64,000 nt of DNA. Source: Verrucomicrobia bacterium UBA2281 (lineage in GTDB: Bacteria > Verrucomicrobiota > Kiritimatiellia > CAIQIC01 > Lenti-01). Both the position numbers and the translations under genes were made by a program. The stretch is taken from assembly GCA_002347655.1 (NCBI GenBank), contig DDWR01000024.1, positions 140,971-204,970 on the forward strand, read 5' to 3'. The notes under the pieces are model-generated. The model saw only the letters and a list, made by a program, of their open reading frames with translations. It made no database searches and was not told the DNA's origin. Positions 1,095 through 21,127 of this stretch are shown here, one piece after another (the first letter of the stretch is position 1; every line of letters starts with the position of its first letter).

Positions 1095-2042
1095 TTAACC
1101 TAGTGATATCTTAAGGCTTGGATCCGTCTCGCACTCCTCGACTATCCCATTGTACGCCTCAACTAGCCTCCCGAGCGATCCCGAACGATCTTGGTTCTGG
1201 AATCCAATCCACTCGTAAACGTTGGTTGCCAAAAACTGACTGATTTCCAGTACGTCGATACGTCCTGAAATTCCTTCATTGTCGGCCAGCGCCTTGACCC
1301 CGCCGGTTCCGGCTTCGGTCGTGACAATCAAAGGGCGTAGCCCCTCTTGAAGATTGCGCTTGCACTTCCGGATCAAGGCATCGCTTGGGGCAACCGTGAC
1401 GTGAATGGCCGTGTCGCCGATTAAGAAATCACCTTTTGCGTGCACGGATGCATCCGCGGCAGAAAAACACTTGTGCTCCACTTTCGCCCGTGGAAGCGCC
1501 AACGAAAGCTTTGCCCCCACAAGATGCTCCAACACGGCGCCGACCACCATTGTTCCGCCGCTCTTCCTTTGCCTATCCAAGGCCAGCCCCAAAAGGTCCG
1601 CGACGATTTGACGCAAAGATGCTGATACATCCGCCTTAACTTTTATAGGCTGAGCGGCAAAATATGCTTTTACTTGCTCGATCCACCAGAGCTCTATTGC
1701 CGCATAATCAATCTTCGCCTGGCGTGCTAATTGATTAAGAAATGAAACATAAGCCCGCATTAAAGCCATACTCCCTCGACTAGTGCGTCCGCCTTCTTCC
1801 GAAAGGACGCGCTCTATGCCGTGTTCTTTTAGGATTGACTTAATCGCAGCGCCGCTTAGCCCGGCAACCTGCCCTTTTTTCCCCGTTAAAAACGAATCAG
1901 GAGAAAGAGGCATTGAAAGTCTGGATGCCATTCGGGTCAGAATAATAACCGTTGAGAGCGGCCCCTTGCCTTTCACAAAGTTATCTTCAGCAAACTTCGC
2001 AAGTAACGAGATGAGTTTTTGATTAGACGGCATTAGGAACAC
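1095..2042 (-). CDS. Putative type II restriction endonuclease (R subunit of the C-M-R cassette)
   Basis: 315-aa ORF in low-GC DNA immediately downstream of, and co-oriented with, the C5 methyltransferase (9-nt gap). Contains D...E-H-K / GD...E-x-K-like segments (KVEHKCFSAADASVHAKGDFLIGD). No family recognised with certainty. Confidence 0.45.
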   Translation of the reverse strand: MFLMPSNQKLISLLAKFAEDNFVKGKGPLSTVIILTRMASRLSMPLSPDSFLTGKKGQVAGLSGAAIKSILKEHGIERVLSEEGGRTSRGSMALMRAYVSFLNQLARQAKIDYAAIELWWIEQVKAYFAAQPIKVKADVSASLRQIVADLLGLALDRQRKSGGTMVVGAVLEHLVGAKLSLALPRAKVEHKCFSAADASVHAKGDFLIGDTAIHVTVAPSDALIRKCKRNLQEGLRPLIVTTEAGTGGVKALADNEGISGRIDVLEISQFLATNVYEWIGFQNQDRSGSLGRLVEAYNGIVEECETDPSLKISLG

Positions 2043-2050
2043 CCTTCATT

Positions 2051-3196
2051 TTAAGAGCTCTCTTTGCTTGCGATCTCATGCGCCAATGGATTTAGATAGT
2101 TATCGGCAATCCAATTGATTACAGGGACACATACTGCATCGCCAAATCCATACAACGCCTTGTCCAGCGCCACCTCTTTTAGACTGAACTCATCGGCCCC
2201 CATGAGTCGGGCGCATTCGCGCGCCGTCAACAAGCGCACTTTGACTTGATTGAAGCCAGCCTGAATTAGAATTTGCTTTGCGCTCCCGCCCTTAGGTGTC
2301 CTTAAACACCCCGCGATCCCATCCGTGCGAAGTTCGGCTTGAGACTTTCCATTTCGCACGCGGCGGAAAGCAGTACCATAGGACCACTTTCTCTGTCCCA
2401 TCATGGCCTTAAGTGCGGCTGCGTGCTTAACGCTCATTTGACTTAATAGATAATTAGTGCGCTTCTCGTTCCACCATATGGATGAATCATGTGGAACCGG
2501 CTCAATAATATCCTTCAACGTCTTCTCGGATTTTATCGGCGGCTCAGGAGTGGTTCTTATATGCCAAGAGATTTCCGGGTGTGAATATATGAATTCTGCC
2601 AACGCCCTAGGCCGAAGAGGTCCCTCATAGAAAACGGGGGTTTCGCGCACGATTTCGCAATATGGCTTACTCGGCAACGAACCAATTACAAAGAGCCGCA
2701 CCCTGCTTTGCGGCACAAAACGCGCAGCATCAATGATAAGAGCATCAACTTCATAGCCCAGCTCGTTCAATGCGAGCAACGCAGATTGAAAGTCTTTTCC
2801 GCCCTTCGAGGTCATGAATCCAACAACATTTTCAAGCATTACCAGCTTAGGTCTTCTTGGGCCAAGAGCTTCAAGGACGCGAATGAACCCCCAATAAGCA
2901 GATGATTGCTTTCCGCTTAAACCCATTCGCATTCCCGCCAACGATAAATCCGTGCAAGGAAATGATGCCGTTGCCAGTGTGGCCGCGGGAATTTTACTCG
3001 CATCAATTTTGTGGATGTCGTCGCATACAAAATGGGAAACAGCATCGGCAAAATGCCCGTCGTATAGAGCCTTCTTCTCTTCAGATATGTCGTTGGCGAA
3101 TACAACTTTCCACCCCGATTTTTCTAGTCCAAGGCGGACAAGTCCAATCCCAGCAAAATACTCTGCAACAGTTTTTTGTGTTTGCTCAGAAGCCAT
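2051..3196 (-). CDS. DNA (cytosine-5)-methyltransferase (Dcm-family type II MTase)
   Basis: Motif I FAGIGL, motif IV ASFPCTDLSLAG (catalytic PC), motif VI ENVVGF, and a C-terminal TRD. Low GC. Its start codon is 1 nt after the C-protein stop. Confidence 0.9.
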   Translation of the reverse strand: MASEQTQKTVAEYFAGIGLVRLGLEKSGWKVVFANDISEEKKALYDGHFADAVSHFVCDDIHKIDASKIPAATLATASFPCTDLSLAGMRMGLSGKQSSAYWGFIRVLEALGPRRPKLVMLENVVGFMTSKGGKDFQSALLALNELGYEVDALIIDAARFVPQSRVRLFVIGSLPSKPYCEIVRETPVFYEGPLRPRALAEFIYSHPEISWHIRTTPEPPIKSEKTLKDIIEPVPHDSSIWWNEKRTNYLLSQMSVKHAAALKAMMGQRKWSYGTAFRRVRNGKSQAELRTDGIAGCLRTPKGGSAKQILIQAGFNQVKVRLLTARECARLMGADEFSLKEVALDKALYGFGDAVCVPVINWIADNYLNPLAHEIASKESS

Positions 3197-3197
3197 G

Positions 3198-3422
3198 TTA
3201 TCGGCTTTTCCTTTCGATCTTTGCTACGAGATCGGAAGCTTTCAGTCCAAGGGCGAGCGCAATCTTGAAAATGGCTTTCAAGGTCGGGCTTTTCTTCCCC
3301 CGTTCAAGCTGGCTGATGTAGGTGCGGTGGTAGCCGCTTTCGAAGCCCAATTTTTCCTGCGTCAGGCCGCTTTTCTCGCGGGCTTTTTGCAGTTCTTCCC
3401 CGAACGCTTTTTCCAAAGTCAT
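3198..3422 (-). CDS. Controller (C) protein, XRE-family HTH regulator of the R-M system
   Basis: 74 aa with HTH segment LTQEKLGFESGYHRTYISQLERGKKSPTLKAIFKIALALG. Sits immediately upstream of, and translationally coupled to, the MTase (TAA-c-ATG). RBS AGGAAT upstream. Confidence 0.8.
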   Translation of the reverse strand: MTLEKAFGEELQKAREKSGLTQEKLGFESGYHRTYISQLERGKKSPTLKAIFKIALALGLKASDLVAKIERKSR

Positions 3423-11874: not shown

Positions 11875-11904
11875 GTCCATGTTTCCTGGTTCGGCCCGGC
11901 GCAA

Positions 11905-11978
11905 TGGTTGCCCGACTAGGATTTGAACCTAGACTCTGGCCTCCAAAGGGCCGTGTGCTGCCATTACACCATCGGGCA
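11905..11978 (-). tRNA. tRNA-Gln (anticodon UUG), CCA encoded
   Basis: Read by hand as TGCCCGATGGTGTAATGGCAGCACACGGCCCTTTGGAGGCCAGAGTCTAGGTTCAAATCCTAGTCGGGCAACCA. 7-bp acceptor stem, GGTGTAATGG D-loop, anticodon loop CTTTGGA, and a GGTTCAAATCC T-arm. Confidence 0.8.
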
Positions 11979-12245
11979 ATGCGAGCGATGGCATTCCTCG
12001 GCCGCGCGTCGGCGCCACCCGGCGCCGCGCCCGGCCGCGACAAAGAACCAATCCGGCTCCGCCCCGAGGCGGACCCGTTCAAAAACCCGCGCACCTTACC
12101 CAGCCCCTCCCGAAAAGTCAACCCCCCCCTTTTCCGCGCCCGGGCCGCGCCGGACCCAACGACATCCATTTTAACGCTTTGCGCCCGTTTTGCGCCGTGC
12201 TACCTTGCCTTCGCTGAACCACCCCATGTACGCAGCGAGGCCCTC

Positions 12246-14126
12246 ATGATGAATTTTGCGAAGCGGCTGTTTCCGGCCGCGGCGCTGGCGGGACTGCTCC
12301 TGCAGACCGCCGCCGCCGTCGAACGGGAAACCCACGGCGCCCTCAAGCTCTTCCCCCTCGTCTACCAGCGCGCCACCGAAGATTCCTACGACCTCGAAGC
12401 CCTTTTCGGCCTTGTCGGCGTCCATTCCCGGGGCGAGGAATATTCCCGCCGCGTCGGGCCGCTGTTCTGGGGCGACGACCATCTGCACCTCGCGCCCGTC
12501 TACTGGAATTGGGGCGACAACTGGCTCGTGCCCCCGCTGGCCTGGAACGTCCACGGCCACAAAGGCGTGGGCCCCGTCTGGTGGGGCGACGATTATTTCC
12601 ACGCCGCGCCGCTCTTCTGGAGCTGGAACGACAACTGGCTCCTGCCGCCCGTCGCCGGGCGCCTCCGCGGCACCACCGCCCTCGGCCCCGTCTGGTGGAA
12701 CGACCGCGGCGAATCCGGCCTGTTCCCGCTCTGGTGGAAGAATCCCGACGGCTGGACGCTCCTGCCGCTGGGCTATTCCCACCAAGGCGAAGGCATGTTC
12801 GGCCCCGTCGCGTGGGACGCGCAGCATCTCGACGTCTATCCGTTCTTCTTCAGCGGCGGCGGCGACTGGCTTCTGCTGCCCTTCGGCGGCAAGCTCGACG
12901 ACGACTATATCGCCGGCCCGCTCTGGTGGGGCACCGCCGAATCCGGCCAGCGCTACCTGCATCTGGCGCCGTTCTTCTGGAGCCGCGGCGACAGCTGGCT
13001 CGTGCCGCCGCTGGCGTGGCACGTCGGCGACCACGCGGGCGTCGGCCCCGTCTGGTGGGGGAAAGACTACGTCCACGTCGCCCCGCTCTACTGGAGCTGG
13101 CGGAACAACTGGCTGCTGTTCCCCCTCGCGTGGAACGTCGACGGCCACAAGGGCCTCGGACCGCTGTGGTGGAGCCGCGACTACTTCTGCCTGGCGCCGA
13201 TCTTCTGGAGCAGGCAGGACGACTGGCTGCTGTTCCCGCTGGCCTGGAATATCGGCGGCAACGGCGGCGTCGGCCCGATCTGGTGGGGCCACCGCTATTT
13301 CCATATTGCGCCGCTGCTGTGGACCTGGGAGGGCAACGCGGTGCTGTTTCCGCTGGCGTGGAGCATCGACGGCAACCGCGGCGTCGGGCCCGTCTGGTGG
13401 GGCCGGGACTACTTCCACGTCTTCCCGCTGTTCTGGAGTTCGGGCGGCGACTGGACGCTCCTGCCGCTGGCGTGGAACGGCGCGAACCACAACGGCTTCG
13501 GCCCGCTCTGGTGGGGCGAGGATTATTTCCACGTCGCCCCGCTCTACTGGAGCTGGGACGGCAACCAGCTGCTGCTGCCCCTGGCCTGGAACCTGAAGGG
13601 CAACAAAGGCGTCGGCCCCGTCTGGTGGGGCAAGAACCATTTCCACGTCGCCCCGCTCTTCTGGAGCTGGAACGAGGACTGGCTGCTGTTCCCGCTGGCC
13701 TGGAACCTCGACGGCCAAAAAGGCGTCGGCCCCGTGTTCTGGGGCAAGGATAAAAACGGCGAATCCTATCTCAACGTCTTTCCCCTGTGGATCCGCAAGG
13801 ACCGCACCACCTGGATTCCGCCGCTGCTGGGCTGGATGAACCGGCCCGAAGAAGGCGGCGTCGATTTCAAGCTGGGCCTGCGCCTGCTGCGGTGGGCTTC
13901 CGACGACAAGGGCTACACTTTCGAGCTCCAGCCGCTGCTCGACGTCTCGGGCGGCGACGTCCGCCACTTCTCGCTCGTCTGGCGCCTGTTCGAGTACCAC
14001 CGCGACGCGGACGAACGCTACTGGCGCGCGCTCTTCATCCCCCGCAAGTTCAAGCTGAAGCCCAAGCAAGCCGCCGCCCGCCCGCCCGCGGGCACCGTCG
14101 CCGACGCCTATCTCCCGCGGAATTGA
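12246..14126 (+). CDS. Secreted Trp-rich tandem-repeat protein (about 12 repeats of a 38-aa unit); function unknown
   Basis: Signal peptide MMNFAKRLFPAAALAGLLLQTAAA, followed by repeats of H-x-APL-F/Y-WSW-xx-NWLLFPLAWN-x-DG-x-KGVGPVWWG-x-DYF with a 12-13-aa PLxW periodicity. Start ATG at 12246 verified in frame. Confidence 0.75.
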   Translation: MMNFAKRLFPAAALAGLLLQTAAAVERETHGALKLFPLVYQRATEDSYDLEALFGLVGVHSRGEEYSRRVGPLFWGDDHLHLAPVYWNWGDNWLVPPLAWNVHGHKGVGPVWWGDDYFHAAPLFWSWNDNWLLPPVAGRLRGTTALGPVWWNDRGESGLFPLWWKNPDGWTLLPLGYSHQGEGMFGPVAWDAQHLDVYPFFFSGGGDWLLLPFGGKLDDDYIAGPLWWGTAESGQRYLHLAPFFWSRGDSWLVPPLAWHVGDHAGVGPVWWGKDYVHVAPLYWSWRNNWLLFPLAWNVDGHKGLGPLWWSRDYFCLAPIFWSRQDDWLLFPLAWNIGGNGGVGPIWWGHRYFHIAPLLWTWEGNAVLFPLAWSIDGNRGVGPVWWGRDYFHVFPLFWSSGGDWTLLPLAWNGANHNGFGPLWWGEDYFHVAPLYWSWDGNQLLLPLAWNLKGNKGVGPVWWGKNHFHVAPLFWSWNEDWLLFPLAWNLDGQKGVGPVFWGKDKNGESYLNVFPLWIRKDRTTWIPPLLGWMNRPEEGGVDFKLGLRLLRWASDDKGYTFELQPLLDVSGGDVRHFSLVWRLFEYHRDADERYWRALFIPRKFKLKPKQAAARPPAGTVADAYLPRN

Positions 14127-14481
14127 TGCCGCGCATCTCGGAGCGGCACCCTGGCGGCATTGCGGCTTTCATTTTTCTCTAGCTTGGCGGCCGGGTTTCT
14201 GCGATATATTCGGCAGTTCCGCGGCGATTCTCGGCTCGGACGTTGTTCTTTCCATTTTGCGTTTTGAAGTCTTCCCCGCGCGAGCGGGGAGTCGTTCTAA
14301 TCGAAAACCAGCAATTTTCTTATTCCAGAACGAGACTTGTGGACGCGCCCAACCCTGGGCGCGGCCCCTTGTCTTGTGTTCTGGAAAGGGGCTTGCTGGT
14401 CCCTCGATTAGGGCATGGGCCTGGGGTTCGCGCCTCTTTTCATTTCGTGCGGCACCGGGTCCATGCCACCCATTCGGGAGC

Positions 14482-17400
14482 ATGCCCATGAGAAATCCGA
14501 GGATGAAAAACAAGCCCGCCATCGGGATCGGAATCACTGCTGCCATCGCCGCGCTTGGGCTTGTGGCTTTGGCCTCGGATTCCGCCCGGACCGAAAAGCC
14601 GGCCGCCGTGGATGCCCAGGAATACGCCGATTTCATGGCGAACGAAGCGCTGGACGTGCAGGACCTGGCGGAAGGCGCGGAACTCCAGCGCCGGACGTTC
14701 AACCGCATGACGCCGCCGGGCCTTTCCTGGGTCCAGCCGATGTTTCCTCTCACGGTTCCGTTCGACGCCGCGAATTTCAACGAGAAGTTCCTCGACGAGC
14801 TGCTGGGCGAGGACCGGAACAGCGTGGCGGTCTATCCGCTGACCTTGGCGCTCGATCCCAAGACCCGCGAGACTTGGATCTATAACGCCGAGGGCAAACC
14901 GATCGCCGCGCTGCCGCCGGAAAAGATTTCCCGGGCGTGGCCCGAGGGTTCCGATCCAGCCCGGGTGGTCTTGCGGCTGGATCTGTTGCCCGCCGAGGAC
15001 GTGGAGCCGTACCTGTACGTGGAGGATCGCATGGCCGAAACCGTCTCCGCTTTTTCCGAAAAAGCGGCCAAGTCCGCGCGGAAAGAAGCCGTCGCCAAGA
15101 GCGGCCTGTCCGGCGGGCAGTTCGGATTTGCCGATGCCCGGAAACTGACCAACGGGAACTTCCGGCTGACGGTGACGAACGGGCCGGCTGCGGCGGAAAT
15201 CTTCTCCTACACGATCTGGCACACCTCGTCGGTGGTGGTCTCCACTTGGACCAACGACTTGGACGAGGTCGTCGTGAGCACGAATGTCGTCTGGACGCCC
15301 GTGTCCCCGCCGTATGCCGGGCTGGAAAGCGCATGGGAAGTCGAAACGACGAACTTGCTTCTGACCAACGGCGTGGGCATTTGGGAGGACGCAAGCGCCA
15401 CCGGCAGCGCCCGGGTGCGATTCTACGGGACCACCCAAAGGGCGGATTCCGACGAAGACGGCTTGACCGACGGCGCGGAAATCTTCCTGCACCGTACCGA
15501 TCCATCCTTGTCCGACACCGATGGCGACGGCATGCCCGACGGCTGGGAGGTGACTTACGGCTTGAATGCCCGTTCCGGCCTCGACGAATCCTTGGTCGGC
15601 TGGTGGAAGCTGGACGACGGCGCGGGCTCCAACGCCGTCAATTCCGCCCAGGACGCCTACCATGGTGAACTGGTGGGATTTTCCGGTTTGGGCGGCGGCT
15701 GGACGGGCGACGGGTGTTTAGGCGGCGCCCTGCGATTCGACGGCATCGACGACTGGGTGCGGATTGCGCAGGATCCGGCGATGCTGACGGGTGGTCCCTT
15801 CACCGTGAGCGCGCAGGTGTGGCTGGACCCGGATTGTGCCTCGGCTTGGCCCGAAGCGGTCGCCGATTACGAGGCCTCGACCTATAACGGCTATTGCCTC
15901 GGCTTCAACGAAAACCGCGCCTACGCCATGGTGGGGCCGTACGGCTGGCTCATGGACTCGAACGCGCTCGCGGGCCGGTGGGTCTGGACGGCGCTGGAAT
16001 ACGACGGCGCGCAGATGCGGCTCTATCTCGACGGCGTTTTGGCGGGAGCGACGCCCGTCGCGTTCGTACCAGCGACGAACGGATTTTTCGCCATCGGCAA
16101 CGGACAGGACGACAGCTTCGGCTCCGAATTCTGGAAAGGCCGGATCGACGACGTGCGCCTGTACCGGGCGGTCCTCGGCACGAACGGTCTCGCCGGCATG
16201 TACGACGCGCAGGCGGACCCGGACGGCGATGGCTGGCTCAACCTTCAAGAAAGCGCGCACGGCACCGATCCGTTCCGCGCGGACACGGATGAAGACGGCA
16301 TTTCCGACGGCGACGATCCCGAACCCCTCGTGGCCAATCAGGAACCGATCATGCGGTTCCGGCATCCGCTGGACGGCCAGACGTTCCTCGGCCCGGCCAA
16401 AATCGAACTGAGCAGCGAGTGGATCTACGGCACGCAACCGCCCTCGCAGGCGGTTTATCGGATCGAATCGCTGCTCGACGGCGCCACGAACGAGATCGCG
16501 GTCGCCGCCGGAAGCGATCAGAAAACGAACTGGTACGCGCCTCCGGGGGTCTTCCGCTTGACGGTCCGGGGTGTGGATGCGGGCGGACGGACGGGCGAAA
16601 CGCGCCGGGTGGACGTCGCCGTGGCGGAGAGCGGTTCGTTCGCGGCGCTGACGGCCGCCGAAAAACAAACCGTTCTGGAAAACGGGCCCCGGGCCGTCGA
16701 AGGAGTGGAAGAATGGACGTACGGATATTCTGGCGCGCGGACCGGCAGCCTGCCCGTCGCCGCGGCCGGCAGCCGCATCCTTGCGGGGTTTGCCCAAGCG
16801 ACCAATTTCACCGCCGTGCCGGTGAGCAACTCGTATCTGGACGTTGACTACCATGATCGCGACGCGACGTATGCGACGGTCGTGCCTGGCAACACGCCGA
16901 CGACGAACCTGTTCGCCACCTTGTACGGCGCGGCGCGCTGGGGCGCGCGCCTGGAGGCGAATCTGCCCCCGCCATCGTCTCCGCGCGGCTGGCCGGTGGC
17001 TTACGACTCGTTCTTGGTTTTCGACCAGAATGAACGCGGCGAATGGGTCGGGAAGGTTTATCCCAGTTTGAACAACCTGGCCACGAATGATCCGCATGCC
17101 CTGCTGCATATGGGCTACGGGGCGGAACGCGATGCTTTCTTCTATAGAAACGGAAGCTACCAAGTGCTTCTGGGACCGACGAATTTCAATGGAGAGTTCG
17201 ACTACCGATTGGTCTTCGGCCTGAACAACGCAGGTCTCGTTGTCGGGGCCGGCCTCGATTACGAAGCGCATGGCGGAGGGATGTATCTGGGCCTGGAGGA
17301 ATTTCGTCCCATCGTCTACGGAATCGGCCAAACCGGAACGGTACTGGCGGTCAGCACGCAGGCGATAGGCGGCGCGGCCTATGCGGTCAACGACAAGGGC

Positions 17401-19815
17401 GTCATCGTCGGCTGCGAGATCGCATCCAACGAAATGCCCCGCGCCGTCCGATGGGTGAATGGCCAGGTCGCCGCCGTGGGCGGCCTGACGGGGGCGACGC
17501 AAAGCGTCGCCTTCGATGTCGGCGAAGATGGAACCATCGCCGGCATGCAGAAAATCGGCGGTCAATGGCGACCGTTCCTGGCGGATGCCGCGAGCGGCGA
17601 CGCCTTTTCGCCCGCCATGCTTGGCGGCGTGGATTTCCGGGAATTCTGGCATGTCGGCAAGTTCGGCGCGTTGGGCTGGGGCGCCAGCAACGACGCCCAG
17701 CGCCTCTACTGGGTGTTCCCGGACGACGATCAGGACGGTTTTTCGGACGTCGTCGAGCAGGAGATCGTCGCTGCCGACCCGTTCGACACCCTGATCACCA
17801 TTGCGGGCGTGCTCGGAAGCGACGATTTCGACGGCGACGGGCTGACCAACGCTCAAGAGTGGGAAAAACAGAGCGATCCGGTGCTCAAAGACAGCGACGG
17901 CGACCGCCTTCCGGATGGGACCGATCCTTGGCCTTTGACCCGGCGGGACCGGGACGGCGACGGTTTGCCGGACGACTGGGAAACCCACCACGGCCTCAAC
18001 CCCTTGTCGGCGACGGGCGCGAATGGCGCTGCGGGCGACCCGGACGGCGATGGATTGGTCAATCGCCTGGAATTCGAACTGGATACCGTTCCGACCGGTC
18101 CAAATGGCCCGGCATTTCGGTTCCACCGGGATAAGCTCAATCAATTGCAGGTATCCATCGAAGACTCGCTGAATTGCCCGAACGGAACTCAGGATTCGCG
18201 GCAAATCGTCGAGCGCAGCATCCGGTTTGTAGAAATATTGGATACCAACTTGCCGCCGCTCGACATCAATTTCCTGGTGGGCGTCGCGGGACGGGTCGAA
18301 CGCCAGGATGCTGGTTATGACTTGGTCAGCGTCAACGGCGTTCGGGCCTTTGCCGGATCGAGCGAAGGCTTGGGCTGTGAAATGGCCGAAAAATCCGAAT
18401 GGGTTGTTGTGCCGGTGTCGGTGCCGCCGGGCGACCTCGTCTTGACTTACGATACATACGACGGTGCATTTCATACAGGGGCCTTTGCGAGAGTGACAGG
18501 AATCGCACTAACCCAGGCCGAGACGAACGTGCCTTCAGTGGAAGTCGCCGAGACCGAAATATTCGTCTGCGCGGGATGTACGAACGGTTGCACCGCGACA
18601 TTCCACTTGACGAACGGAAACCCCGTCGGTGTTTCTGCGGATTGGTACGGAGGACCCAGCAATGCCCTGCTCGGCACGGGTACGAGCGTGACCATCGACT
18701 ACACGGCATGGCCCCCCGCCAGCTACCGCATCGTCGCCTGCGCCACCGGCAACGTGGCCTATGCCGATGCCGCCGTGTTGCACGTACTTAAAGTGGAGAC
18801 CGCTTTCGCCGATCCGGACGACGCGAACTGGGCCGACCTGGCGGAAGAGAAAGTCATCCTCTCGGACAAGGACACCCGGATCAAGATCAAGGTCACGCCG
18901 CAACTGGCCGATTTGCAGACCATTTTCTATGCGATCGGCACGACCGTGAATATCAAAACTTCCGGGACCGCTCCGAACGGCCAGGACTTCACGATGACTT
19001 CGCAGAATACAACGCTGGTGCAGGAGAGCGGCTACTCCGAGTTGCGCGTTGCGCTGACGCGTAGCCAACTCATTTCCCTCGGCGTCTTGCCGAGTCAGGA
19101 GAGCGATTCCGTCACGGAGAAAGCTTGGTATGACACTGGTTTCGACACGGACGTGTCGTGGCCGAACCTTCTGGATGGCCACGCTTTCGACAATGGCATG
19201 TCTGCGGAAACGCGCGGGCAATGCACTCAGGCCATATATGGCGGGTTGGACAGCACGCCGCCCAACAGTCCGCTGGACAATTCCTTTTTCAAGGCCGGCG
19301 GGGTCGAAATCATCACGGCGGAATGCTGCTCGGGAGTGTCCGACAAACGCCAGCTCATGAACCAGGCGGATTATTTCTACTACTCCGGCCACGGGTGGAT
19401 CTTAACGGGCGCAGTCTATCCCGGCGGGCCATCTGATGTGAGCGGTTATTGGGACAAGGATTTGAATGTCATCATTTTTGCTGGATGTTCTGTTTTGGAC
19501 ATCAACGATTACAACGACAATACGAATGGTGCGGCCCATCTAGCTTCTCCAGGAAAACTGTGGGAGCCAATTGGCCCTGAATATTTTCTAGGCTATAACT
19601 GGAAAGCACCGACAGACCTGCAAAACTCAGATTCAATTATCTCAAGTTGGCTCTCAAATCGAGGGGCGCTTGGAAATATTGAGGCGTGGCGGGCGGCTAA
19701 CGACAACTCCAACGGACACAACGCCTGTGCAATCATTAAAAATACGAGCTACTTCTATTTTAGAAGAATACTGGGAATTCCCGTATGGACCGAAGTTCAA
19801 AAGGCGGATTGGTGA
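14482..19815 (+). CDS. Large secreted multidomain protein (about 1,777 aa) with TSP3-like Ca-binding repeats, a LamG domain, HAF-type repeats, and a foreign low-GC C-terminal module
   Basis: Signal peptide MKNKPAIGIGITAAIAALGLVALA. Several DxDxDG runs (DSDEDGLTDG, DTDGDGMPDGWE, DPDGDGWLNLQE, DTDEDGISDGDD, DSDGDRLPDG, DRDGDGLPDDWE, DPDGDGLVN). A LamG/ConA-like segment (GGALRFDGIDDWVRI...RLYLDGVLAG...GRIDDVRLYRAVL). A HAF-like segment (AAYAVNDKGVIVG...AVRWVNG). Alternative ATGs at 14488 and 14503. Confidence 0.85.
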   Translation: MPMRNPRMKNKPAIGIGITAAIAALGLVALASDSARTEKPAAVDAQEYADFMANEALDVQDLAEGAELQRRTFNRMTPPGLSWVQPMFPLTVPFDAANFNEKFLDELLGEDRNSVAVYPLTLALDPKTRETWIYNAEGKPIAALPPEKISRAWPEGSDPARVVLRLDLLPAEDVEPYLYVEDRMAETVSAFSEKAAKSARKEAVAKSGLSGGQFGFADARKLTNGNFRLTVTNGPAAAEIFSYTIWHTSSVVVSTWTNDLDEVVVSTNVVWTPVSPPYAGLESAWEVETTNLLLTNGVGIWEDASATGSARVRFYGTTQRADSDEDGLTDGAEIFLHRTDPSLSDTDGDGMPDGWEVTYGLNARSGLDESLVGWWKLDDGAGSNAVNSAQDAYHGELVGFSGLGGGWTGDGCLGGALRFDGIDDWVRIAQDPAMLTGGPFTVSAQVWLDPDCASAWPEAVADYEASTYNGYCLGFNENRAYAMVGPYGWLMDSNALAGRWVWTALEYDGAQMRLYLDGVLAGATPVAFVPATNGFFAIGNGQDDSFGSEFWKGRIDDVRLYRAVLGTNGLAGMYDAQADPDGDGWLNLQESAHGTDPFRADTDEDGISDGDDPEPLVANQEPIMRFRHPLDGQTFLGPAKIELSSEWIYGTQPPSQAVYRIESLLDGATNEIAVAAGSDQKTNWYAPPGVFRLTVRGVDAGGRTGETRRVDVAVAESGSFAALTAAEKQTVLENGPRAVEGVEEWTYGYSGARTGSLPVAAAGSRILAGFAQATNFTAVPVSNSYLDVDYHDRDATYATVVPGNTPTTNLFATLYGAARWGARLEANLPPPSSPRGWPVAYDSFLVFDQNERGEWVGKVYPSLNNLATNDPHALLHMGYGAERDAFFYRNGSYQVLLGPTNFNGEFDYRLVFGLNNAGLVVGAGLDYEAHGGGMYLGLEEFRPIVYGIGQTGTVLAVSTQAIGGAAYAVNDKGVIVGCEIASNEMPRAVRWVNGQVAAVGGLTGATQSVAFDVGEDGTIAGMQKIGGQWRPFLADAASGDAFSPAMLGGVDFREFWHVGKFGALGWGASNDAQRLYWVFPDDDQDGFSDVVEQEIVAADPFDTLITIAGVLGSDDFDGDGLTNAQEWEKQSDPVLKDSDGDRLPDGTDPWPLTRRDRDGDGLPDDWETHHGLNPLSATGANGAAGDPDGDGLVNRLEFELDTVPTGPNGPAFRFHRDKLNQLQVSIEDSLNCPNGTQDSRQIVERSIRFVEILDTNLPPLDINFLVGVAGRVERQDAGYDLVSVNGVRAFAGSSEGLGCEMAEKSEWVVVPVSVPPGDLVLTYDTYDGAFHTGAFARVTGIALTQAETNVPSVEVAETEIFVCAGCTNGCTATFHLTNGNPVGVSADWYGGPSNALLGTGTSVTIDYTAWPPASYRIVACATGNVAYADAAVLHVLKVETAFADPDDANWADLAEEKVILSDKDTRIKIKVTPQLADLQTIFYAIGTTVNIKTSGTAPNGQDFTMTSQNTTLVQESGYSELRVALTRSQLISLGVLPSQESDSVTEKAWYDTGFDTDVSWPNLLDGHAFDNGMSAETRGQCTQAIYGGLDSTPPNSPLDNSFFKAGGVEIITAECCSGVSDKRQLMNQADYFYYSGHGWILTGAVYPGGPSDVSGYWDKDLNVIIFAGCSVLDINDYNDNTNGAAHLASPGKLWEPIGPEYFLGYNWKAPTDLQNSDSIISSWLSNRGALGNIEAWRAANDNSNGHNACAIIKNTSYFYFRRILGIPVWTEVQKADW

Positions 19816-19819
19816 TCTT

Positions 19820-20512
19820 ATGAAAATGCACTATATATTTCTGTTGATTTTCCTGATGCTCGTCTCAATCGCGTTAGGACAACAGCCAGTCAAGATGGCC
19901 GATATTCTTAATACAGTTCGGCAGCAGGGCCATTTGAAAGATCCCGAAATTGCTATTTCCGCTGAAAAAATAATTGCGGGTTCTACTAACCTTGAAGAAG
20001 TGGGTGCGGCCAAGATGCTACTTGCGCAATCTCTGGCCGACTCTGGGAGCCATCGTTTGAATGCTGATGCTCTTGAAAGAGCAAGAACGCTTTGGGAAGA
20101 AGAGCTCCGCGACAGTCCGAGTTCTTGGGAAGGGCAGTTGGCTCGATTTAATCTGATCGCCGACCTCGGTACACAGGGGTCAAACTCGGCCATAATCGTT
20201 TCGGCTCAAGACGCCTTGAAAGACATGAACTTTGACATATTGGAAAATTCCTCTAGTCCTGTGTTGAAAACGCTTCGCCAGCTTTTTGGGGATCGGCCAA
20301 ACCTTTTCCGTGAAGGAATGAAGCTTGCCCTTGCAAACGCACTCTGCAATGAACTCCGCATTGCAGAAGCACGAAATGTTTTCGATACCATTACGGATCC
20401 TGAATACAAAAACATCATTCAATCCCGTATCGTTTTGGCGGAGAAGTCGCTGACCGAGAAAGAACATTTAGCCGCTGAACATCTGAAATCTGCCCCGGGT
20501 TCAGTTCCGTAG
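19820..20512 (+). CDS. Small secreted protein of unknown function (low-GC, candidate immunity/inhibitor partner of the upstream C-terminal module)
   Basis: 230 aa with an N-terminal signal/anchor MKMHYIFLLIFLMLVSIALGQQP. Start lies 4 nt after the upstream stop. GC about 46% against about 68% for the genome. Confidence 0.7.
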   Translation: MKMHYIFLLIFLMLVSIALGQQPVKMADILNTVRQQGHLKDPEIAISAEKIIAGSTNLEEVGAAKMLLAQSLADSGSHRLNADALERARTLWEEELRDSPSSWEGQLARFNLIADLGTQGSNSAIIVSAQDALKDMNFDILENSSSPVLKTLRQLFGDRPNLFREGMKLALANALCNELRIAEARNVFDTITDPEYKNIIQSRIVLAEKSLTEKEHLAAEHLKSAPGSVP

Positions 20513-21127
20513 TCTAGTGGTTTCTTGGAGGTCGGCGGGGTATTCCACGGTGTTGATAAATTCTTGGGGCGGTCGCCTCGCGTAAGCCGACCTTACACTC
20601 CGCTCGCTGCGCTCGCGGGTAGTAGGCGCGCCCAGGAGCCGCGCCAGCGCGGGGACGCGCTGTCACGTCTCCTGCGGGGCTGCGGGCGCGCCGCTGTCCC
20701 CCGTGCCGCTTCCCTTCGGGACGCGCGGCCCGTGGGTTTTGGCGCGGCGGGGAGGCGGTAGGCTGCGGTTTCCCCCGCCTTGGTTTTCCCCCCGGCGCCC
20801 CCCTTTCGGAGGCGCCCCCTTTCCGAGTGCGGATCATCGGCCGGGGGGCAAACCCATCCCCGTTCGGTCGCTTGCGCTCCCTCACTGGGGGCAACCGCAC
20901 GGCGGCCATTTTCGTTTATGGTGCCGCCGCCCTTCGGGTCCCCCCGCCGAAATCTCTCTGCCGCTTGCTGAACACCCCCATCCCCCCGCAGTCTTGCGGG
21001 GGCCGGTCGCGCGTACGCCGGCGGGACGCGTCCCGCACGGCTCCCGCGCTTCCACGGTCGCCGCCGACCCGCAACCAGTTTTCGCCGTCCTTGCCCTCGG
21101 GCGGGCGCTTGGGCTATCGTGCGCCCC

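Follow-up and report, generated by a model that had tools for sequence, protein, structure and literature searches.

In this work, we analyzed a gene pair within a stretch of 64,000 nucleotides from contig DDWR01000024.1 of Verrucomicrobia bacterium UBA2281, hereafter the window. It consists of a gene for a large exported multidomain protein, whose extreme C-terminus (the tip) is predicted to be a clan-CD cysteine peptidase domain, and of a small gene directly behind it that encodes a putative exported partner (Table 1). The large open reading frame (ORF) extends from stop to stop over positions 14059-19815, with its TGA at 19813-19815. Its likely start is the ATG at 14488 (MRNPRMKNK...), and homologues align from MRNPRM; alternative starts are the JGI call at 14503 (1770 aa) and an in-frame ATG at 14482, and in one relative (L175) a 1-nt indel leaves the 14482-type ATG out of frame. 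The ATG of the partner gene, at 19820, lies 4 nt past the TGA and opens a protein with the N-terminus MKMHYIFLLIFLMLVSIALGQQ. An earlier note on this DNA, made from the sequence alone, had expected the product of this 230-aa gene to be exported, and its N-terminal signal or anchor, together with the same gene position in ~60 loci, bears this out; as read from the sequence, the partner is translationally coupled to the large gene and exported. We looked for a promoter between the two genes and for a terminator behind the second, and found neither.

The 3' end of the pair differs in composition from its surroundings. In 300-nt windows, GC content falls from 0.59-0.70 to 0.44-0.50 between ~19300 and 20500 and is 0.70-0.74 from 20500, and the 1-kb windows starting at 19401-19601 have the lowest GC of the whole 64 kb (mean GC 0.658). 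The maximum-likelihood change point of the GC content at third codon positions (GC3) in the large ORF is nt 19429 (codon 1649, log-likelihood ratio 27), with a GC3 of 0.78 before and 0.46 after it; GC3 is 0.47 in the downstream ORF, and GC is back to 0.70 at 20513. Since the drop sits in third codon positions, it is not caused by amino-acid composition. The low-GC segment that the earlier note had placed at the end of the large gene and in the downstream gene was thus recovered, but its description as a foreign module stood only in part: the composition shift is present, whereas the segment does not match the domain, given that the peptidase begins at ~19111 and its pre-domain at ~18784. The GC3 break falls inside the peptidase domain, 13 codons past the candidate catalytic His, and not at the domain border. 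Changes as abrupt as those at 19429 and 20513 would suit an assembly chimera, or a pseudogenised remnant followed by an ORF that is not a real gene. Relatives from independent assemblies of several samples have the same junctions, ORFs and GC profile at 96%, 82% and 74% nucleotide identity, which excludes an assembly artefact; furthermore, neither reading frame is interrupted, the family of the protein is conserved and has a confident predicted fold, and partner homologues occupy the same position in dozens of genomes. We consider such an origin extremely improbable. The sole other stretch of the window with comparably low GC (0.49-0.52), at 1095-3223 on the minus strand, encodes a DUF4928 protein (E 3e-59) and a C-5 cytosine DNA methyltransferase (E 6e-46), and is probably a horizontally acquired restriction-modification pair unrelated to the tip.

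Table 1. Features of the gene pair and its leader; positions are those of the window.
Feature	Position	Strand	Basis
Conserved structured non-coding 5' leader of the large gene, ~290 nt	14194..14487	+	alignments A8 and A9, RNAalifold
Large exported multidomain protein, ~1775 aa	14488..19815	+	ORF, translation, homologue alignment
Predicted Sec signal peptide, MRNPRMKNKPAIGIGITAAIAALGLVALA/SD	14488..14574	+	read by eye from the sequence
Constant N-terminal domain, ~360 aa, up to the first TSP3 repeat	14488..15561	+	52-90% identity, many different tips
Laminin_G_3 (concanavalin-like) domain, between bacterial TSP3 calcium-binding repeats	15739..16176	+	PF13385 E=3.8e-18, PF18884 E=6.7e-15
Beta-rich pre-domain (VLKVETAFADPDD...KIKVTPQL...), ahead of the peptidase in nearly all family members	18784..19110	+	alignment
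Predicted clan-CD (caspase-haemoglobinase fold) cysteine peptidase domain, 234 aa, extreme C-terminus, conserved terminal Trp	19111..19812	+	
Candidate catalytic His, motif NQADYFYYSGHG	19390..19392	+	follows beta-strand 88-92 of the model
Candidate catalytic Cys, motif IIFAGCSVLDINDYN	19486..19488	+	follows beta-strand 120-124 of the model
Low-GC3 cassette: post-His two-thirds of the peptidase domain and entire partner gene	19429..20512	+	GC3 change point
Partner gene, 230 aa: signal peptide or anchor (residues 1 to ~21), then all-alpha TPR-like repeats; family A	19820..20512	+	

The tip had been suspected to belong to clan CD because of an S-G-H-G and an A-G-C motif about 32 residues apart, and both motifs are present: the window copy reads NQADYFYYSGHGW, then NVIIFAGCSVLD, with 32 residues from His to Cys. 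The AlphaFold2 model of the residues encoded by 19111-19812 (mean pLDDT 95.4) has the caspase-haemoglobinase alpha/beta fold, with YFYYS-G-H-G following strand 88-92 and VIIFA-G-C following strand 120-124, so that His and Cys, in this order, each stand after a hydrophobic strand. Cys126 of the domain is invariant in both alignments, and His94 is invariant in alignment A1 and conserved at >=90% in A2 (75 relatives). The conserved blocks are NQADxFYYSGHG, AGCSVLDINDYN and SPGxxWExxGP..LGYNxxAP, plus the C-terminal Trp, and the identity of the pre-domain across loci is 34-79% (BLAST). On the strength of this model, the tip is a clan-CD fold peptidase with a conserved His/Cys dyad, and the initial suspicion held; it would act as a Cys-dependent endopeptidase. 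A homologue search with the tip retrieved 74 unannotated metagenomic proteins. The last 254 residues of the large protein gave no match in Pfam or NCBIfam, a PHROG scan of the window tip gave nothing, and a PDB sequence search with the profile of the clan-CD (CD) family found no relative. Weak matches to Pfam DUF6345 (PF19872) were obtained for 48 of the 75 relatives (best E 4.4e-5) and to Peptidase_C25 (PF01364) for six (best 2.5e-4), the window copy having neither at E<=1. Among curated sequence families, DUF6345 is probably the nearest, the relationship being probably at superfamily level; it has no known function, and it also forms the tip of one further protein built on this N-terminal scaffold.

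The gingipains RgpB and Kgp (MEROPS C25, clan CD), secreted proteases of anaerobes, have the same His-then-Cys order after hydrophobic strands. The tip differs from them in its sequence (9-10% identity), in its lack of an N-terminal prodomain and of a type IX secretion system C-terminal domain, the latter following from the position of the catalytic domain as the last of the protein, and in having a separately encoded partner. Neither the PF01364 match and gingipain architecture that mark MEROPS C25/Peptidase_C25 were found, nor the CPD fold and internal position, upstream of a released cargo, that mark MEROPS C80. CHAT proteases (TPR-CHAT/Csx29, SAVED-CHAT) resemble the pair in that a protease is associated with helical repeats of the tetratricopeptide repeat (TPR) type. 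However, in TPR-CHAT the repeats are fused N-terminally, cytoplasmic and linked to CRISPR or to cyclic-oligonucleotide-based antiphage signalling (CBASS), whereas here the TPR-like protein is separate and predicted to be exported; besides, the tip has no Pfam CHAT match.

Sequence searches with the partner recovered three proteins from the single sequence and 12 with a profile, and its structure model was built on 12 sequences; as these searches were nearly empty, the partner family was assembled from synteny. Pfam, NCBIfam and PHROG returned nothing for the window partner. Scanning one genome per species yielded 78 loci with the peptidase domain, mainly in metagenome-assembled genomes (MAGs) of Kiritimatiellia, Lentisphaerae and Verrucomicrobia from gut, rumen and digesters; more distant relatives of the domain occur in Armatimonadota, Chloroflexota and Fervidibacter, and the closest locus is that of Verrucomicrobia bacterium ADurb.Bin018 (79% identity). 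Contigs L023, L045, L065, L067 and L068 are binned as Faecalibacterium, Limosilactobacillus, Bifidobacterium, Methylotenera or Paludibacteraceae, for which mis-binned contigs of the Planctomycetes-Verrucomicrobia-Chlamydiae (PVC) group seem likelier than true transfer. In essentially every one of the ~60 PVC loci, the domain makes up the last ~235 residues of a protein of 600-2100 aa and is followed, at an offset of -6 to +23 nt, by a signal-peptide ORF of 160-240 aa. The partners fall into family A (41 members, that of the window included, with an invariant Trp), family B (18 members) and a small third family C. The nearest sequence neighbour of a domain has the same partner family in 57 of 57 cases. 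The loop after the catalytic Cys has 36-41 residues in domains with family-B partners and mostly 28-30 in the others, which suggests that the partner contacts that region. Family-A partners are 11-26% identical among themselves while the domains stay at 40-80%.

To survey alternative tips, we searched 1.84 billion cluster representatives exhaustively with HMMER for matches to the first 373 residues of the large protein. The N-terminal domain was found in 69 representatives, at 52-90% identity, only two of which keep the CD domain at their end. The 55 near-full-length (longest) proteins fall into 38 tip clusters when grouped by their last 300 residues, and colinear homology with the window protein ends at residue ~360 or at ~600-620. 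A constant N-terminus is thus combined with many unrelated tips, and a tip-specific gene lies directly downstream in the ~60 CD loci as well as in all seven alternative-tip loci examined. In P0088, 87% identical to the window protein over 596 aa, the different tip is followed 17 nt downstream by a 197-aa ankyrin-repeat protein with a signal peptide; L087 is 63% identical over 612 residues and then unrelated, and its next gene encodes a HEAT-repeat protein with a signal peptide; and the P0090, P0092, P0096, P0136 and L041 scaffolds each have a coupled signal-peptide partner, these partners being mutually unrelated. GC3 declines from the constant region through the tip to the partner in all seven loci. 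The proposal that orthologues would carry alternative tips, each with its own small gene, was therefore borne out.

Pfam, NCBIfam, PDB and PHROG gave no match to the ~360-aa N-terminal domain, a PDB search with its profile returning TSP3-like repeats only. Its role may lie in export or anchoring, as a so far undescribed domain of PVC bacteria; the label "adhesin", which the earlier note had given to the scaffold, is unproven. A metagenome scan with the N-terminal region gave mostly TSP3 matches, with L087, L088, L090 and L105 alone being useful. Pfam matches across the proteins with this domain comprise TSP3, LTD (lamin tail domain), LamG, beta-helix, PAD (protein-arginine deiminase), DUF6345, Peptidase_M7, Ntox44 and, in one protein, alpha-amylase with CBM48; a GH13 motif search did not find this alpha-amylase-bearing protein. 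Among the alternative tips, one matches Ntox44 and one PAD. HExxH zincin-like motifs lie 50-110 residues from the C-terminus in the tips of P0090, P0093, P0128, P0136 and P0156, and trypsin-like motifs (SPRHVLFVAHF...DSGNPCF) were seen by eye in the tip of L105:328-3927. The tip of L041:23-4507 has the motifs HES...GWGIAQID...LYNGAG, from which a lytic transglycosylase was guessed by eye; the guess has no database support, and the tip had no hit in a PDB search. At this locus the scaffold is followed by the gene of a 378-aa signal-peptide protein (L041:4504-5640), an orphan CD cassette and type I restriction-modification genes.

The diversity of tips bears on the possibility that the CD domain acts in cis as a processing or sorting domain, comparable to the CPD of MARTX and TcdA or to transpeptidases of the glycosylphosphatidylinositol (GPI) transamidase/PorU kind, with the partner as acceptor, anchor or activator. 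The constant placement of the domain at the extreme C-terminus and its conserved terminal Trp would suit such a role, and most caspase-like domains of polymorphic toxins have been described as peptidases that act in release (Zhang, de Souza, Anantharaman, Iyer, Aravind 2012, PMC3482391). However, at least 38 different tips, the CD domain among them, alternate on the scaffold, whose trafficking accordingly does not depend on this domain; no part of the protein lies beyond the domain to be released, and orphan copies with private partners, described next, are unlike a housekeeping sorting function. We regard a role in cis as very unlikely.

The comparison of loci points to exchange of tip and partner as a unit. 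The GC3 of the tip is below that of the N-terminal part of its own gene in 47 of 51 loci, and that of the partner in 51 of 51. Strong GC3 change points cluster at the start of the peptidase domain (~86 codons before the His), at the start of the pre-domain (~190 before) and just after the His. Loci L031 and L040 are 89% identical over their N-terminal 952 residues, with domains at 53% and partners of different families; the window and L003 form the opposite mosaic (domain 88%, partner 70%, N-terminal region 40%). L177 contains a main gene with a type-A CD tip and partner A, then a 573-aa orphan with a type-B tip and partner B, and, after this orphan pair, the start of a third fragment. Its main and orphan proteins are 100% identical over ~300 residues, with a confirmed exact DNA repeat of 300 nt, ~90% identical up to NQADxFYxSGHG and ~45% identical thereafter, and this divergence point right after the His motif is the site of the GC3 break in the window. 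Junctions of the window's class were found in L177, with a remnant of like kind in L070. In L041, an orphan pre-domain with peptidase domain and partner B lies behind a scaffold that has a different tip and partner; in L068 and L070, 5'-truncated or decayed peptidase remnants adjoin intact partners; and L179 has an extra family-A partner gene without a toxin. Orphan tip/immunity cassettes of the polymorphic-toxin kind are thus present in L177, L041, L068, L070 and L179. The low GC3 of 19429-20512 is kept in L003-L008 at ~18% nucleotide divergence, with no sign of amelioration; possible causes are that these are AT-rich, rarely recombining accessory genes, or that they are repeatedly converted from low-GC cassettes.

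In contact-dependent inhibition (CDI; cdiA-CT/cdiI) and Rhs arrays, the main gene has orphan modules behind it in which part of the constant region is retained, and the immunity gene travels with the variable part. The L177 orphan, the abrupt divergence at a conserved motif and the partner moving with the variable part are alike here. In contrast to these systems as generally known, there is no TpsB/CdiB partner, no VENN or PxxxxDPxGL motif and no Rhs core, and the motif at the junction is the catalytic His motif of the toxin itself, NQADxFYYSGHG. Staphopains and staphostatins provide another precedent, in which the gene directly behind that of a cysteine protease is small and encodes a specific inhibitor that protects the producer. 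Unlike the staphostatins, cytoplasmic beta-barrels that act on papain-like enzymes, the partner is predicted to be exported and alpha-helical, is paired with a clan-CD domain and belongs to a recombining cassette.

A close resemblance exists to the Sec/type II secretion system (T2SS) polymorphic toxins with Tox-Caspase, by their published description. Caspase-fold "Tox-Caspase" C-terminal toxin tips have been catalogued, ankyrin and HEAT repeat proteins are among the listed immunity classes, and PVC phyla are absent from the Tox-Caspase table entry (PMC3482391). The likeness extends to (i) the constant N-terminus, the repeat stalk and the hypervariable tips, (ii) the tip-specific downstream gene and the orphan tip/partner cassettes with 5' homology to the main gene, and (iii) the caspase-fold H...C domain as the C-terminal-most one, with helical-repeat (ankyrin, HEAT) partners on sister tips. 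On the other hand, the N-terminal domain of the window protein matches no trafficking domain and there is no RHS, FilH, LXG, MafB-N or PAAR; the stalk is made of TSP3, LamG and LTD; every partner examined has a signal peptide; and junctions can fall inside the toxin domain, at the His motif.

Taken together, these results lead us to favour, with moderate confidence, a polymorphic toxin-like effector that depends on Sec for export and is paired with an immunity or inhibitor protein in the periplasm, tip and partner being carried in an exchangeable cassette. The pairing of a toxin tip with its immunity protein, or of a protease with its inhibitor, as the earlier note had it, is supported by the exported and coupled partner, the variation of tips, the private partners and the orphans. 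The large gene would encode a Sec-exported modular protein made of signal peptide, ~360-aa domain, TSP3/LamG and other stalk modules, pre-domain and effector tip, the last being a clan-CD Cys/His endopeptidase of gingipain/CHAT-like fold and distant kin of DUF6345. Most likely, the partner would bind and block the peptidase in the periplasm of the producer, as an immunity protein or cognate inhibitor, with contacts probably in the post-His part of the domain that bears the catalytic Cys loop. This part and the partner gene would form the exchangeable low-GC cassette, swapped by homologous recombination at conserved upstream sequence, with crossovers at the NQADxFYYSGHG His motif, at the start of the domain or at that of the pre-domain. 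The use of the effector may be interbacterial or otherwise toxic.

Several observations weigh against this explanation. First, alpha-amylase/CBM48, beta-helix and PAD modules occur on the same scaffold, and with such ordinary exoenzyme-like modules the scaffold may be a general display or secretion device. Second, no delivery machinery was found beside any examined locus, the neighbours being different and unrelated housekeeping genes, and neither a trafficking domain nor a linked secretion system was found, the signal peptide alone being recognisable; the favoured explanation provides no path for a Sec-exported protein to the periplasm of a target cell. Third, the partner matches no known immunity or inhibitor family and its fold is a generic TPR-like scaffold. 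Fourth, similar domains can have very different partners, which fits a strict lock-and-key immunity poorly: the domains of L021 and L024 are 88% identical and their partners have no BLAST match to each other, and in L030 and L031, from one MAG, domains at 85% go with partners at 23% identity. Besides, no paralogue of tip or partner and no orphan cassette was found within the 64-kb window, and L003 (82% nucleotide identity) has the same tip, partner and GC gradient without an identity step at 19429, which rules out a recent strain-level swap in the lineage of the window. The idea of a swapped cassette is accordingly upheld by the alternative tips, orphans and junctions at other loci, and not by any recent event at this one.

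Some of these observations would be accommodated by the main alternative, a nutritional or matrix-processing extracellular protease, used as gingipains are and displayed on a general surface scaffold, with the partner as a periplasmic inhibitor or steric chaperone and no antagonism involved. Such an enzyme agrees with the gingipains as closest folds, with the hosts, which are MAGs of polymer-degrading gut, rumen and digester Kiritimatiellia, Lentisphaerae and Verrucomicrobia, with the M7 peptidase modules of the scaffold in addition to those just listed, and with the lack of a delivery apparatus near the examined loci; the periplasmic bind-and-block step is common to both explanations. It is at odds, however, with the peptidase remnants beside intact partners and the lone extra partner (L068, L070, L179), since it is difficult to see why a chaperone would persist where its enzyme is missing, whereas retained immunity is to be expected. 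Neither does it account well for main-plus-orphan arrays with identical 5' homology (L177), for at least 38 tip types with a private partner at each examined one, for the Ntox44 match of one alternative tip, or for the fast evolution of the partners relative to the domains. We therefore judge a purely digestive protease unlikely, and retain the polymorphic toxin-like effector as the favoured explanation.

Upstream of the large gene, with which it shares a transcription unit, the leader is present in the window, L009, L088, L172, L173 and L175, with shorter versions in L087 and L174, and it is kept at the nucleotide level ahead of N-domain genes with different genomic contexts and different tips. 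One-nucleotide indels indicate that it is non-coding. RNAalifold predicted 90 pairs in six sequences, 19 of them with compensatory double changes. By pair counting, 96.6% of cells are paired, against 39-44% with the partners slid, and the 19 compensatory pairs compare with 2-4 in controls; the observed values were reached in 0 of 500 shuffles. The Shine-Dalgarno sequence GGGAG (14474-14478), just upstream of the ATG at 14488, lies within the 3' strand of the outer helix, and an upstream hairpin has the invariant motif CTGC-N9-GCAGTTCCG. No Rfam family matches 14194-14487. From covariation and position, the leader is possibly an undescribed cis-regulatory element or riboregulator of the effector family. 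Further upstream, a tRNA gene on the minus strand (11908-11978, Rfam 59.9 bits) overlaps the start of a 740-aa ORF (11904..14126, plus strand) that has no Pfam match and whose true start or reality is uncertain.

Comparative genomics has already described systems of this kind, in which an immunity gene adjoins that of a polymorphic toxin-like effector with a caspase-fold tip. The pair can accordingly be called undescribed in part: Tox-Caspase tips are catalogued (PMC3482391) and the relatives of the tip weakly match DUF6345, whereas the scaffold with its N-terminal domain, the CD subfamily, the partner families, the intradomain junction at the His motif and the phyla involved appear to be new. 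A literature search for this specific system found nothing specific. It is tempting to speculate, as a tentative and rather doubtful extension, that PVC bacteria have a large and undescribed polymorphic effector system of their own in which four features would come together: (i) their own ~360-aa N-terminal export or delivery domain, (ii) dozens of periplasm-acting tips, among them clan-CD and zincin-type peptidases, each with a secreted immunity protein, (iii) crossover at the His motif, generating chimeric active sites and placing immunity specificity in the Cys half, and (iv) expression gated by a new ~290-nt leader RNA that sequesters the ribosome-binding site.

Guts, rumens and digesters harbour Kiritimatiellia, Lentisphaerae and Verrucomicrobia in abundance, but these bacteria are hard to culture, and the ways in which they compete are almost uncharted. 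Should the tips turn out to be digestive enzymes, the scaffold would still be a general modular surface-display platform with trans-encoded zymogen control. If the favoured explanation is true, these bacteria would be armed with multiple copies of exported effectors whose tips are exchangeable and have antidotes of their own, on a scaffold and an N-terminal domain absent from all databases. The pair would then be the first case of a clan-CD protease toxin whose TPR-like inhibitor is secreted, and would be of use as a specific protease/inhibitor pair; its leader would be a candidate new cis-regulatory RNA, and its junctions a case of natural recombination inside a catalytic domain that would place the immunity determinant in the Cys half.

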